A stretch of 64,000 nucleotides of DNA, taken from the IMG/VR virus record IMGVR_UViG_2939521961_000018; one strand, written 5' to 3'. The position numbers were made by a program. The first letter of the stretch is position 1, and every line of letters begins with the position of its first letter. The stretch comes from a virus. Lineage: Duplodnaviria; Heunggongvirae; Uroviricota; Caudoviricetes. Positions 57,001 through 63,000 of the stretch are shown here, piece after piece.

Positions 57001-60000
57001 TCGAAATGGCGTGACAGCTCAGCCACCTGGACGTCACAGGACAGGGCGAGCCATTTCAGTTCATGGGCTCGCCGCGGGATTATTTCCGACCGTCTGGCAA
57101 CGGCGATTTTGCGCCATGCGGGAAGAGTGGCGCTAAACGCGGGGGCATCATCGACAGTATCAGAGGTGCGCCCGTCATCGCCTTCCGGTGCAGAAGCCAC
57201 AGGCGTCACAACACTGCTCTCTTACCTTGCCAGCGAGTCAGAGGGAAGCCTGAAAGTACAGGGATGGTCAGCCAGTGGCGGCAGGGCAGAAGTGGTCAGC
57301 GATGCGGAGGGAACCGGAGGTAAGGCAGTGAAGCTGACCAAGGAAGCCGGTAAAAGCAGCTGGGTGCTGGAGTACGCCGCGGGCAACGGTGCGGCTCTGT
57401 TACAGAAAGGGGGGCAGATTCGCTGCCGCTTTAAGGTTTCGGGAGCGCTGGCTGCGAACCAGTATGTTATGGCGTTTTACTGGCCGGTATCTTCACTGCC
57501 ACAGGGCGTTGCCCTGACCGGAGACGGGGGAATAACCTGCTGGCAGCGTTCTACATCCAGACAGATGCAAAAGACCTGAATGTGATGTACCACAATGCGA
57601 AAGTGGCGACAAACAACCTGAAACTGGGAACCTTTGGCGCATTTGATAACGAATGGCATACGCTGGCTTTCCGCTTTGCCGGGAATAACAGCCTTCAGGT
57701 GACGCCGGTTATTGATGGTCAGGATGGCACACCGTTCACGCTGACGCAGTCACCGGTCAGTGCATTTGCGGCGGATAAACTGCATGTGACAGACATTACC
57801 AGGAATGCGACTTACCCGGTGCTGATTGACAGCATTGCGGTGGAAGTGAACAGCACAGACACTGCGGCATGATAAAAAAACCGCCAGCGACAGGAATGGA
57901 CGCTGGCGGTGGTAATACCTATGGAGAAAAAATAAAGGAACGATACTTTCGTGCTCTGGTTTTTTAAATGAAAACAGTTCTTATTGTCAACAATAACGGA
58001 AAGAAATTATGACATTTCTGAACCAGTTAATGCTGTACTTCTGTACGGTGGTCTGTGTGCTGTATCTCCTTTCGGGTGGATACCGGGCCATGCGTGACTT
58101 CTGGCGCAGACAGATTGACAAAAGGGCCGCTGAGAAAATCAGCGCCAGTCAGTCAGCCGGAAGCAAACCCGAAGAGCCGCTCATTTAGCGGCAACTTTCT
58201 TAATCACACCTTTCGACGAGAAAATCCCATGTCAGAAATTACATCCCTGGTCACTGCTGAAGCAGTGAAGGAAGTCCTGCGCTCTGAAGAAGTCCGGAGC
58301 GCACTGAAACAGAAACTTCGCCATAACCTGGAAGCGCGTCTTGATGCAGAAGTGGATGCCATTCTGGATGAACTGCTGGGCGCACCGGCAGCTCCGGAGC
58401 CGGAAGGCATCGCGGGTGAGGGGAGTGCTTCAGACAGCGGTGACCCCACACCGGACAGCGACATGATGATGTAAGCATGCGTCAGGGACCATCGGTGTGT
58501 GCCGGTGGTCTTTTTTTATTGTTGTGAGCTTCCGGATTGCGGGAGGCGGGGTATGAACCAGATGGAAAAATCACAACAGGTGTGTCATACACCACGTCAG
58601 CGGTGGGAACGGGCTACTGGTTCCTGCAGTTGCTGGACAGGGTTTCCCCGTCTCAGTGGGCGGCAATAGGCGTGCTGGGGAGTCTGCTGTTTGGTCTGCT
58701 GACGTACCTGACGAACCTGTATTTCAAAATCAGAGAGGACAGGCGTAAGGCGGCACGGGGAGAGTAAGCTGATGAGCAGGAAACTCCGCTATGGTTTATC
58801 GGCTGCCGTTCTGGCGCTGATTGCCGCAGGTGCTTCTGCGCCTGAAATCCTCGACCAGTTTCTGGATGAAAAGGAAGGTAACCACACCACAGCATACCGT
58901 GATGGTGCGGGTATCTGGACCATCTGCCGTGGAGCCACCCGGGTGGATGGTAAGCCTGTTATTCCTGGCATGAAGCTGTCGAAGGAAAAATGCGACCGGG
59001 TTAACGCCATTGAGCGTGATAAGGCGCTGGCATGGGTGGAGAAAAACATCAAAGTGCCGCTGACCGAACCCCAGAAAGCGGGGATTCGCGTCATTCTGTC
59101 CGTACAACATTGGTCCCGGTAAGTGTTTCCCGTCGACGTTTTTACAGACGAATTAATGCAGGTGATCGAAAAGGTGCCTGCGAAGCTATTCGCTGGTGGA
59201 TTAAGGACGGTGGCAGAGACTGCCGTATTCGTTCAAACAACTGTTACGGTCAGGTATCCCGTCGTGACCAGGAGAGCGCGCTGGCGTGCTGGGGAATCGA
59301 CAGATAAGAAGAATATTTTGCTGAAAAATGAGGTTTGCTTACATGGACGGATAACACGAAATCCTGCAAATTGGCAAAATGTAAGTGAATAAAGTCAAAA
59401 CAGTTGTTTAACACTCAGGCACCGTAATGATGCCTTTGTCATTTCTGCGCATCTCACGCGCATCTCACAACACAGAACCTTTCAGGATGACCCTTGAGGA
59501 TACCGGTTTGGCTGTCGGTGCCTTTCTGTGGGCTGGATTCCTGTGAGACAAGGTTCATCACTAAAAGGAAATAACCGATGAATATGATGGCCGTGCCGTT
59601 TCACGGCAACTCTCTTTATGTAGTTAACCATAATGGCGAACCATACGTTCCCATGAAACCTGTCGTTGCGGGGATGGGGCTGGCCTGGCAATCACAGTTG
59701 GCTAAGTTAAGACAGCGTTTTGCGTCAACTATAACGGAAATCGTTATGGTTGCTGAGGATGGGAAACAACGCAATATGGTGTCCATGCCACTTCGAAAAC
59801 TTGCCGGCTGGCTACAAACCATTAATCCCAACAAAGTAAAACCCGAAATCCGCGATAAGGTCATCCGGTATCAGGAAGAGTGCGACGATGTTCTTTACGA
59901 GTACTGGACGAAGGGTTTTGTCGTTAATCCCCGTAAAATGAGCGTGATGGAAGAACTCAACCAGGCTTGTGCTGACATGAAACGGGATAAAAACATTGCC

Positions 60001-63000
60001 AGTGTGTTTGCTACCGGGCTGAATGAGTGGAAACAGGTTAAAGCCGCGCATGTATCAAAAATCCGTACGCTGGTAAATGAAGCGAATATGCTGATTGATT
60101 TTGTCCTGGCTGATACAGGCAAAGGGAAAATAACAAAGGCGGATTGATGGGGTGGCTAATGATATCAGATAAACTCATAACGCTGGTGAAGAGCCTCTGT
60201 GTACTTGTCGGCATTTCATTTTTAGTCATGCTGGTTGCCATTTTCTTTTCCACCGCCTGGCGAGTCCTGACGTTATCGGGACTGGTGGGGTGAAAGAGAG
60301 ATGAACCGTGTTCTGTGTGTGGTGATTATTGTCCTGGCGGTTGGCTATGGTGCGCTGTGGCTGGCAACAAACCATTACCGTGACAACGCGCTCACCTACA
60401 AAGCGCAGCGCGATAAAAAAGCCAGAGAGCTGGAACAGGCGAATGCCACCATTACTGACATGCAGGTGCGCCAGCGTGATGTTGCTGCGCTCGATGCAAA
60501 ATACTCGAGGGAGTTAGCCGATGCGAGAGCTGAAAATGAAACTCTGCGTGCTGATGTTGCCGCTGGTCGTAAGCGCCTGCGGATCAACGCCACCTGCTCC
60601 GGTACCGTGCGTTGAAGCCACCGGCACCTCCGGCGTGGATAATGCAACCAGGCCCCGACTGGCAGACACCGCTGAACGGGATTATTTCATCCTCAGAGAA
60701 CGGTTGATGACAATGCAGAAGCAGCTGGAAGGGGCACAGGAATATATCCGCACTCAGTGCCTGAATTAACAGAGCCAGCTTAATCGCTGGCTTTTTCATA
60801 TCTGAATTTCATCGCGCATCTCACGCGCATATCACATCCCCGAGCCTTTCAGAAAGTTGAGCCTGAGAACTGCCGTATATGGTGGCGACCATCTCGGGGC
60901 GGCTTTTCTGTGAGACAGGCTCAATTTTCTGAAAGGTAAGACGCTATGAACTATCTGACGATTGTTAACGGTATTGATTTCCGCGATCTTGTTTTTGTGA
61001 CAGGCAACGAGCCGGTGACGGATACCCGAAAGGTTGCCGTAGCATTTGCAAAGAACACAAAGATGTATTGCGGAAAACAAGAGCCGTTGTTCAACAATGC
61101 TCAAAAGAATTTGCAGAGCGCAATTTTGCGCTTTGCTATGAAAACAATGAGTTTACAGAACGGTAAACCCCAGCCCATATATCGAATGACAAAAGACGGT
61201 TGGACGATGTTGGTATTTGGTTTTACGGGGAAAGCTGCTATGACCTTTAAGGAAGCGTACATTCAGGCTTTCAACTGGATGGCTGAGCTTATTCAGCAAG
61301 GTCTGGCGAATCTGGAGGCGGAGCGCAACGCTGTAATGCTGGAGTACATGAAAGAGAAAGATGTCGCCAGTATGTCAGGTCGTTTGCTCAATCGCTGGGG
61401 CAGGGTGAAGAAGCCTCAGTTGCTGGCAAGGCTGGACAGGCTGGAGCAGCAGGGGCAGATTGCGTTACCCGGATTTGATAAAGGCATTTCAGCCTGACAT
61501 AGCCATGCGCCGTATCGTCGCCGTATTCCCGCATTAACAGAGACCGCAGCCACCTTATCTGCGTGAGTGTGCGGGGATAATCAAAAACGATACACACCGG
61601 GTTTTCTCATTTTTCACGAGATGGGAGCGATTTCCCGCGAAGCCGCCTGTCCGGTGCGGTGGTGGAAGAAACCGGATAAAACAACCGCATTGTGCAAATA
61701 TCGATCAAATATGGTGCTGCTGTGTGAAATCTGAAAAATCACAGCGGTCATTATGCATCAGTTTTTAACACAGGACGTCAGAACGTGACATGGCAAAGCT
61801 GGACTGGAAAAAGCTGGAGCAGGCATTCCGACGCGAACATGCCGAAACGGGAATAACATTACTGGACTGGTGCCGGAAGAAAAAGATTAATTACAACACC
61901 GCCAGAACCCGTATAAAAATGGGCAAAATCGATCATGAAATTGATCATAAAACCGATCATGACATCTCAGATGAAGAACCCTGCAATGACGCGGGTTCCG
62001 GCGATGAAAAATGCGCAAAAAACTCTGAAAAAAACTGCGCAAATTCGCAGAAACGAAACGGATTCGTGGTTCCCGACTTTTACCACCTTCAAACGCTTTT
62101 TCTCAGCGAAACACCCACGCCGTAAGACACCGTGGATATGCGAAGTATCTTGAGGCAGATAACCTCATGGATGATGCGTCCGACATGGTGCTGTTCGATG
62201 AACTGGTGTTCACCCGGGCCCGCGCACTTTCAGTAACTAAGGCACTTAAAGGGATGTTCGCCGACCTGGAAGAGGCAACTGACGTGGAAACCCGTGTTGC
62301 TCTTTACGACAAAATACTCAAAGCTGAACAGGCCCTTGACCGGAATATTGCCCGTATCGAGTCAATTGAACGCTCATTGCTGACGCTGGACGTCCTGGCT
62401 GAGACAGCACCAAAACTTCGTGCTGACCGGGAAAGAATCAACGCCGCCAGAGATAAACTCAGAGCTGAACCGATATTCTGACCAGCCAGCGTCGGGGCGT
62501 TTGTTACGCCTGTCAGTGACATCGTGTCATCGCTGCATGAAATGAGTAATTCGGGGAGACTGGATGACATTCCGGAAGAATGAACCGCGATGTGATGAGC
62601 CGTCAGAAATGACCGAGGCTGAACAACGTCTGTTCATCATGACTAAACTGAGCAATCCCTGGTGGCGGCTCAATCATCTCTACAAAATACAGAACGAAAA
62701 AGGTGAACTGGTCACCTTCAGAATGCGACCGGCGCAGCGCCAGTTGTTCCGGAGCATGCACAATAAAAATATTATCCTGAAAGCGCGCCAGATGGGATTT
62801 TCCACAGCCATTGATATTTATCTTCTCGACCAGGCATATTCATTCCGCATCTCAAATGCGGGATCGTCGCTCAGGATAAACAGGCTGCCAGTGAAATTTT
62901 CCGCCACAAAAATTGCTGTACCGTTTGATTCATCTCCCTGACTGGCTGAGAGCCTCATTCACCATCGTTGAACGTCGTAGCGGTGCCAGCGGTGGCTATA

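Follow-up and report, generated by a model that had tools for sequence, protein, structure and literature searches.

A conserved structured leader RNA in phage late operons that probably gates translation of the gene it precedes

The 64,000-nucleotide (nt) stretch of Caudoviricetes DNA filed as IMGVR_UViG_2939521961_000018, hereafter the window, carries in two prophage regions three copies of a short intergenic element, each of them placed directly before a gene of the antirepressor or Rha type. Comparison of this element with its homologues in other phages indicates that its conserved feature is an RNA fold and not a tandem DNA repeat. We consider it probable (about 0.6) that each copy is a cis-acting structured 5' leader within a phage late-operon mRNA, limiting or gating translation initiation of the next gene. 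An initial annotation, made from the DNA alone, had proposed a functional element that also offers homology for recombination between prophages. This interpretation is partly supported, with the specification that a functional leader and a recombination-prone block are retained, but as a translational leader RNA instead of a DNA repeat motif.

A covariance model search of the window gave exactly three strong matches, all on the + strand (Table 1), which confirms the number of occurrences initially annotated, while the best score of the reverse strand was only ~18 bits. This model was built from related sequences and did not include the middle copy, which it nevertheless recovered (63 bits, E = 7e-15). 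The 11-mer GCGCATCTCAC occurs exactly at 4141-4151, 59447-59457, 59458-59468 and 60814-60824, and with one mismatch at 60825-60835, directly after the last of these. With at most one mismatch allowed, six matches are present in the window against 1.47 expected, and none of 100 shuffles reached six. The sixth match, at 28307-28317 (-), a presumed fourth copy, was rejected as a chance match to the 11-mer, with no cassette found around it. Between the first hairpin of the leader (hp0, see below) and the start codon, the left copy agrees with the right one at 128/133 positions (96%), including an exact run of 85 nt, so that their previously noted near-identity is borne out. A direct-repeat search returned the same pair as 4167-4283 and 60839-60955 (91% identity) and as 4119-4168 and 60792-60841 (88%). 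Since only 91/150 positions agree in the upstream flanks and 96/150 in the first 150 nt of the coding sequences, the two copies are most alike within the non-coding leader rather than along the coding flank, the opposite of a likeness confined to neighbouring genes. The middle copy shows ~73% identity to the other two, with a longest exact run of 17 nt, and retains the blocks GCGCAUCUCACGCGCA, CCUUUCAG, CUGUGAGACA and AAAGG.

The leader, ~130 nt in total, is composed of hp0 (GCGC-AUCUCAC-GCGC), a linker, a segment of 6-8 nt called a, and an imperfect hairpin of ~90 nt. The basal helix of this long hairpin pairs CCUUU(C)AG with CU(A/G)AAAGG, that is, an anti-Shine-Dalgarno (anti-SD) strand with the Shine-Dalgarno sequence (SD) located 10 nt before the AUG. 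Furthermore, the 3' strand of the long hairpin has a bulge of six nucleotides, GUGAGA, whose sequence is complementary to the hp0 loop UCUCAC; this pairing is referred to below as the kiss. The same long hairpin with a paired SD is predicted for all three copies of the window, with energies of -50.7, -38.9 and -59.8 kcal/mol for the left, middle and right copy, respectively, and with z-scores of -4.4 for the left and -6.4 for the right one. In the ensemble, the probability that the SD is unpaired amounts to 0.02 in the left, 0.31 in the middle and 0.001 in the right copy.

Across the family, only the first repeat unit and the GCGC(A) of the second are conserved, in other words the hairpin GCGC-N6-7-GCGC, and the rest of the second unit varies freely (AUAUUAA, ACAUCAA, ACUUCAC, AUUUCAC). 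The tandem direct repeat initially described at 59447-59468 is therefore present exactly, as two abutting units (59447-59457 and 59458-59468), but it is not a family feature, and a tandem array of iterons or operators was rejected for this very reason. Each of 62 distinct leaders has a fully paired (100%) hp0 stem, G.U variants such as GUGC...GCGC included. In the nested helices of these leaders, 93% of the alignment cells are standard pairs and 29/43 pairs are changed on both sides. The covariation score is 0.246, whereas shuffles give 0.117 (0/500) and sliding the partners by 1-3 columns gives 0.077 at most. These values come from an alignment fitted to the nested structure by the covariance model and thus lean towards that structure. 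Compensatory pairs in the upper helices are already visible in a plain MAFFT alignment. RNAalifold run on the latter lost the lower stem through misalignment between types, and the covariance-model alignment was used instead. The inverted repeat of the initial annotation belongs to an RNA fold, in which changes are compensatory and G.U pairs are tolerated on the + strand only, and is not a DNA motif.

The kiss helix lies outside the model and is nevertheless paired in 98.3% of cases, one of its pairs being U-A in 31 leaders and G-C in 30. Among 147 unique sequences tabulated, the loop UCUCAC always occurs with GUGAGA, UCGCA always with GUGCGA, and CUCGCA with GUGCGAG. Rarer combinations are CGCAC:GUGCG and CCGCA:UGCGG in Shigella phage Ss-VASD, ACGCCC:GGGCGU in type G, UCGUAC:GUGCGA with a G.U pair in type H, and UCGCAC:GUGCGA in a second copy of phage phi80. 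The two common variants are found on the hairpin backgrounds A, B and C' alike; therefore, both sides of the kiss are co-inherited or co-selected across ~85 nt of otherwise shuffled sequence. The sole clear mismatch belongs to L050, an evident chimera of two types.

A second long-range pairing connects segment a, which stands 0-1 nt from the anti-SD strand on its 5' side, to a segment a' that forms the bulge separating the apical hairpin from the helix that follows, or, in type H, which has no apical hairpin, lies in the terminal loop. At least eight complementary classes are observed: CCCGAG/CUCGGG, CGAGAG/CUCUCG, CACAGAA/UUCUGUG, CUCAGA(A)/(U)UCUGAG, CCAAAGA/UCUUUGG, CCACCGA/UCGGUGG, CCACAGAG/CUCUGUGG and AGAGAG/CUCUCU. 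At least six Watson-Crick pairs are formed in 121/125 unique leaders, counted per sequence since the register shifts between types and column-wise counting fails. When the apical segment is shuffled, 6.7% of the sequences reach six pairs, and a and a' taken from different classes give a mean of 4.2 pairs against 6.4 for matched ones. A chance origin of eight independent classes at ~7% each thus seems negligible on this comparison. Homologues were gathered partly with patterns fixing CCTTTCAG and CTGTGAGAC, or hp0 together with CTTTCAG, so that the invariance of these blocks is in part a matter of construction. The decisive variants (L123, L124, L125, type G, type H, P22 and phi80), on the other hand, come from unconstrained blastn or model matches, and the weight of the evidence lies in the distinct complementary classes, ~8 for a:a' and ~7 for the kiss.

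The arrangement of these pairings suggests how initiation could be gated. Read along the 3' strand of the long hairpin, the elements form a gapless series: a', which pairs with a; the two upper helices, each with its partner on the 5' strand; the bulge, which pairs with the hp0 loop; and the SD strand, which pairs with the anti-SD strand. With a at the foot of a ~30-bp stack, next to the anti-SD strand, and a' close to the top of that stack, a:a' should exclude at least the lower, SD-closing half of the stem. The RNA would then have two states, in the manner of a conformational switch or a kinetic trap. In nascent prefixes ending at a', the a:a' pairing belongs to the minimum-free-energy fold in 9/10 types (P = 0.6-0.9), and the full-length minimum-free-energy fold of all 10 types holds the SD in the long hairpin (-41 to -60 kcal/mol). 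During transcription, a:a' would form first and lead to a metastable ON fold together with the upper helices and the kiss. This fold would hold the anti-SD strand as a closed loop, leaving the emerging SD free, until it is displaced by the much more stable long hairpin, in which the SD is closed (OFF). Each late transcript would accordingly be translated in a small burst of limited duration, which could suit potent or toxic regulators and nucleases encoded in a very strongly transcribed operon, and the upstream intrinsic terminator would silence the cassette in the absence of Q antitermination. In its most explicit and still doubtful form, the leader could be a portable "topological timer", in which a:a', clamped by the kiss, blocks the winding of the anti-SD strand onto the SD. 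Translation would in this case be brief and restricted to nascent, Q-antiterminated transcripts, so that the late operon could carry selfish or dangerous genes (antirepressors, KilA-N/Bro-N/Rha regulators, HNH and GIY-YIG-like nucleases). The leader might even be the cis element behind the Rha phenotype of phi80 and P22 that depends on the integration host factor (IHF).

Several points weigh against a gating leader of this kind. The exclusion between a:a' and the lower stem is a geometric argument, based on a spacing of 0-1 nt, and the ON pseudoknot is beyond what folding tools can score, so that any stability or lifetime given to it would be a guess. The kiss is compatible with both the ON and OFF states. 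In one of the ten types, type D (L124), a:a' is absent from the minimum-free-energy fold of the nascent prefix, and the middle copy of the window folds only marginally better than its shuffles (z = -1.2). The SD:anti-SD pairs are almost invariant and, taken alone, carry little information; only the F/P22 type changes a pair (CCUG:CAGG). Finally, many of the sequences are close relatives and the cell counts overstate the number of independent events.

The long helix itself could alternatively be a substrate of RNase III, whose cleavage is reported to activate translation of lambda N and of T7 early genes. Cutting of the lower stem would separate the anti-SD from the SD, thus activating translation or destabilizing the downstream message, with the additional pairings shaping or gating the cleavage. 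Indeed, the lower stem offers 26 uninterrupted bp in the right copy and ~20 in the left one, it covaries and is hence maintained as a duplex, and it is located between cistrons of a long polycistronic RNA. However, the helix is of variable length and is broken by bulges and mismatches in types C, F, G and H, and cleavage leaves unexplained why a:a' is conserved beside the anti-SD strand. We regard RNase III as unlikely to provide the explanation in itself, although processing may act together with the proposed switch.

The leader is widely distributed among lambdoid and P22-like phages. A blastn search retrieved it from 232 phage records, including those of Stx1 and Stx2 (Shiga toxin) phages, of the Salmonella P22-like phages epsilon34 and Sf101, and of Klebsiella, Enterobacter, Pantoea and Hafnia phages. 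In viral contigs, each of two pattern scans gave at least 120 matches. The motif thus recurs in related phages, and its status as a functional, conserved element beyond shared flanks is supported. In a scan of one genome per species, 19 stretches were found and 15 of them were confirmed by the model, namely in Escherichia, Raoultella, Pantoea, Shimwellia, Apirhabdus, Symbiopectobacterium, Trabulsiella, Enterobacter and Entomohabitans as well as in three contigs of metagenome-assembled genomes. In the latter, which bear the labels Bacillota, Collinsella and Cellvibrionaceae, the leaders hardly differ from E. coli types, and these contigs probably represent misbinned enterobacterial phages. Four other, non-enteric metagenomic matches (L128, L139, L140 and L141) were discarded as chance pattern matches, to which the covariance model gives no hit. 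Neither of the E. coli K-12 prophages DLP12 and Qin, searched for the leader, has a copy, and the RefSeq annotation of an O157:H7 genome has no feature at the leaders.

The surroundings of the leader follow a common plan. A GC-rich hairpin with a T-run ends 2-20 nt before hp0 in 130/147 distinct upstream flanks. The upstream open reading frame (ORF) encodes mostly an Rz-type spanin, sometimes an endolysin or an o-spanin, and occasionally a tail-region protein. A position after lysis genes, initially thought to be invariable, is therefore the commonest one but has exceptions. In Klebsiella phage ST11-VIM1phi8.1 (L122, 1522-1654), a copy follows tail-region genes. In L009 (2119-2250), the very divergent type G leader (33.5 bits) stands ~5 kb upstream of the lysis-region copy and before an unrelated small gene; it retains the terminator, hp0, the kiss ACGCCC:GGGCGU, an a:a' of 8 bp and the SD helix. 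The third case is the second, shorter copy of phi80 (L269, 7239-7355), located just before cos and upstream of an ORF resembling N15 gp59. More divergent leaders probably escape the current covariance model. The downstream genes are of the Ant/Rha type in the window, as initially annotated, but more diverse elsewhere: across the family, their Pfam domains comprise Rha, P22_AR_N, KilA-N (with or without P63C or ORF11CD3), Bro-N, ANT, T5orf172/MUG113 and HNH_3 (with or without AP2).

A particular case is that of rha. The P22 leader is found at 39505-39647, before rha (orf201), whose annotated start, a GTG at 39575, falls inside the hairpin. The SD-proximal ATG at 39645 gives MNELIANHDFDFRQ..., collinear with other Rha proteins. 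In phi80, the leader at 43644-43777 of the record also precedes rha and includes the annotated start, which in the stretch analysed (L269) is at 5740 compared with an SD-proximal ATG at 5776. The SD-proximal ATG is likely the true rha start in both phages, the annotated starts being probable misannotations. The phi80 record mentions "DNA synthesis inhibition in IHF- hosts", and according to a secondary source, P22 and phi80 rha is detrimental in the absence of IHF, "which regulates the rha gene" (PMC4936722). A sequence with at most one mismatch to the IHF consensus WATCAANNNNTTR was found in none of the three leaders, and such matches occur at chance level over the window. The connection between the leader and IHF or Rha is accordingly a lead and not a finding.

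These observations bear on a further possibility, that a trans-acting factor (a host or phage protein, a small RNA or a small molecule) stabilizes one of the two folds. IHF and HU, which prefer bent or bulged helices, would be the protein candidates. The two mutually exclusive conserved pairings, the presence of the leader before rha in both P22 and phi80, and the reports just quoted of an IHF-regulated gene whose product is harmful only in IHF-deficient hosts are all in favour of such a factor. The lack of the IHF DNA consensus in the window copies is not, and the apical domain is variable, and missing in type H, unlike a ligand pocket; the genes controlled are regulators and nucleases, not metabolic genes. 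As for small RNAs, the window contains a C4 antisense RNA (RF01695, 78.8 bits) at 44643-44730 (-), adjoining isrK (57.2 bits) at 44755-44831 (-). This pair looks like the P1/P7-like c4-icd-ant or Gifsy-type immunity module of the right-hand prophage, that is, a second, unrelated system of antirepressor control. Judged by crude whole-length duplex energies, C4 pairs with the leader no better than shuffled versions do (25-26/40). isrK beats 40/40 shuffles against the left copy, but through an unrealistic full-length duplex, so that whole-length energies are uninformative here. Overall, control by a trans-acting factor has, in our estimate, as low a probability as RNase III cleavage.

Other properties of the leader concern exchange at the DNA level. 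The same leader sequence is found in front of unrelated genes, the junction falling precisely on the start codon, and some leaders, L050 for example, are chimeras. From these sequence junctions, the cassette appears to be portable, recombination swapping the gene at the start codon as well as the upstream flank, and recombination at the leader block is real. The suggestion that the copies provide homology for recombination between prophages is thus plausible, given the 85-nt exact run, the identical leaders on unrelated genes and the chimeras. A 300-nt direct repeat of 91% identity (2-301 and 52486-52785), upstream of the Q-region genes of both prophages, constitutes a further block of inter-prophage homology. 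One could go further and consider the element as purely DNA-level, either a promoter whose operator, the palindrome GCGC...GCGC or the tandem repeat, would be bound by a protein, or a conserved linker kept for module exchange between lambdoid phages. The exact run shared by two prophages of one chromosome, the mosaic junctions at the leader borders with chimeras inside it, and the sequence TTTCAC-N17-TATTAA flanking hp0 in some variants are consistent with this explanation. However, compensatory changes link sites ~85 nt apart, G.U pairs are tolerated on one strand only, and the opposite strand scores far lower (~18 bits versus 135-142). Moreover, a scan of 58700-61700, which covered promoters of the sigma-70 type only, revealed no sigma-70-like site, no -10 or -35 element is conserved between types, the terminator abuts hp0 in many variants, leaving no room for a promoter, and the second repeat unit is unconserved. 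A purely DNA-level element is therefore very improbable; a role in recombination may well coexist with the RNA function, but it leaves the covariation unexplained.

The remaining candidates were rejected. A riboswitch is contradicted by the differing apical loops (GGCG, GUCGG, UCUGG, GUG), the missing apical hairpin of type H and the regulator or nuclease genes downstream; a leader peptide, for which the middle copy offers 19 codons from an AUG at 59487 to a UGA in the bulge, by the absence of a start codon there in types A, B and D, the loss of the UGA in GUGCGA variants and the unconserved frame; and the anti-sRNAs (antagonists of small RNAs) AgvB and AsxR of enterohaemorrhagic E. coli (EHEC) prophages are located at the stx moron site 3' of stx2B and not at the leader (PMC4104026). 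None of the three copies matches a family of Rfam 15 at the gathering score, and a search of 59300-61000 at E up to 10 returned only noise, in the form of miRNA, snoRNA and serC models at 12-20 bits, well below the cut-offs.

If the proposed gating of initiation by the leader is correct, a widespread and previously unannotated regulatory RNA would be present in Shiga-toxin phages and in P22 and phi80, which rank among the best-studied temperate phages. This RNA would offer a concrete, mutable cis element for the control of late-operon antirepressor-like and nuclease genes, and a testable handle on why Rha harms phage growth only in IHF-deficient hosts. With two conserved and mutually exclusive pairings, the leader would be an unusually clear natural example for studies of co-transcriptional folding. 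In practical terms, the analysis corrects the probable misannotations of the rha start codon in P22 and phi80, and it points to an exact-homology block of at least 85 nt able to mediate recombination between co-resident EHEC prophages.

Table 1. Leader copies of the window, their constituent parts and the adjoining genes
Feature	Position	Strand	Remarks
Left copy, model match	4138-4276	+	Covariance model, 141.8 bits
Left intrinsic terminator	4100-4125	+	AGCCUCGC-GA-UGCGGGGCU then U7, after Rz
Left leader	4141-4263	+	hp0 4141-4155 (loop 4146-4151), a 4167-4172, hairpin 4173-4263
Left leader, a'	4221-4226	+	
Left leader, bulge	4238-4243	+	
Left leader, SD	4259-4263	+	
Left Rha-family gene	4274-4792	+	Phage_pRha and ORF11CD3
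Middle copy, model match	59444-59580	+	Covariance model, 63.3 bits
Middle weak terminator-like hairpin	59417-59445	+	AGGCA...UGCCU, U-rich tail; read from sequence
Middle hp0	59447-59461	+	GCGC-AUCUCAC-GCGC; loop UCUCAC 59452-59457, complementary to bulge 59543-59548
Middle linker	59462-59470	+	Includes remainder of second repeat unit (unconserved in family)
Middle segment a	59471-59477	+	CACAGAA, directly 5' of anti-SD; pairs with a' UUCUGUG 59524-59530
Middle long imperfect hairpin	59478-59568	+	Fold and covariation; anti-SD CCUUU from 59478, bulge GUGAGA 59543-59548, SD AAAGG 59564-59568
Middle antirepressor-like gene	59578-60147	+	P22_AR_N and ORF11CD3; downstream of middle leader
Right copy, model match	60811-60948	+	Covariance model, 135 bits
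Right intrinsic terminator-like hairpin	60773-60796	+	AGCCAGC-UUAAUC-GCUGGCU then U-run, after Rz
Right hp0	60814-60828	+	GCGC-AUCUCAC-GCGC; loop 60819-60824
Right segment a	60839-60844	+	CCCGAG; pairs with a' CUCGGG 60893-60898
Right long hairpin	60845-60936	+	26-bp uninterrupted lower stem; bulge GUGAGA 60910-60915, SD AAAGG 60932-60936
Right Rha-family gene	60946-61497	+	Phage_pRha and ORF11CD3; two 1-nt indels relative to the RefSeq O157:H7 genome

Compared with the RefSeq O157:H7 genome, the window shows single-base indels at 59085, 59139, 60612, 61048 and 61152, as well as at 58511 and 58566. They break the endolysin gene R (58772-59307) and Rz (60301-60769) and frameshift part of the right rha; none is located in the leaders. 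These indels are either assembly errors or signs of pseudogenization. Other features of the window include a full-length Rfam STnc100 small RNA (185.7 bits) at 55513-55714 (+), between a tRNA cluster and an esterase gene at 55936. Three tandem tRNA genes occupy 53857-54105 (+) in the late region of the right prophage, and a single tRNA is found at 27829-27900 (-), near the junction of the two prophage regions. Two identical ALIL pseudoknots, the frameshift signal of the IS3 family (121.5 bits each), are placed in opposite orientation at 12420-12536 (+) and 30938-31054 (-), indicating two copies of one insertion sequence in the two prophage regions. Finally, two sRNA-Xcc1 matches lie ~530 nt apart, at 33825-33910 (-) and 34358-34446 (-), accompanied by a 54-nt direct repeat of 94% identity (33525-33578 and 34053-34106).

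Literature searches brought up no description of the leader, which appears to be undescribed. Among documented systems, the closest in logic are the hairpins sequestering the ribosome-binding site in phage T4. Such hairpins precede T4 e, soc, 49 and I-TevI, as well as free-standing homing endonuclease genes (Aeh1 mobE, T4 segB), and the T4 block is relieved by a late promoter within the 5' arm, giving transcripts that lack this arm (PMC3014915). As in T4, read-through transcripts from a phage operon carry a potentially harmful or selfish gene whose SD or AUG is masked by pairing within the same RNA, and several of the genes that follow the leader encode HNH or GIY-YIG-like nucleases, as in the T4 set. 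Unlike in T4, an internal promoter was neither found by the sigma-70 scan nor conserved in the leader, so that any relief must come from a:a' and the kiss; the T4 hairpins are also short and devoid of pseudoknots.

Time-limited translation has precedents in the maturation-gene leader of MS2 and in the hok mRNA of plasmid R1, where the equilibrium fold closes the ribosome-binding site and an earlier pairing delays this closure. The leader resembles them by the long-range closure of the SD in its predicted equilibrium fold, but it has no sequence relationship to them and is located inside a polycistronic late mRNA of a DNA phage. Moreover, its proposed trap would be a pseudoknot blocking closure topologically, and not a competition for identical nucleotides. 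Post-transcriptional control of antirepressors is likewise exerted by P1/P7 c4-icd-ant and by P22 sar-ant, sar being annotated at ant in the P22 record. Those systems employ a separate gene for a trans-acting or antisense RNA, whereas the leader has no antisense partner (~18 bits on the reverse strand), is unrelated in sequence to C4, isrK and sar, and would control a different set of genes, in the late operon.

In the leaders of lambda cIII and N, alternative mRNA structures modulated by RNase III decide on SD access. These are lambdoid mRNA leaders too, but they differ from the present one in their genes, early-operon position and structure, with no homology. Lastly, conserved boundary or linker sequences between the modules of lambdoid phages figure in the hypothesis of modular evolution. 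Like such boundaries, the leader is a short conserved intergenic block, flanked by interchangeable genes and offering homology for exchange. Unlike them, it is under selection for an RNA structure, and recombination would be at most its second role.

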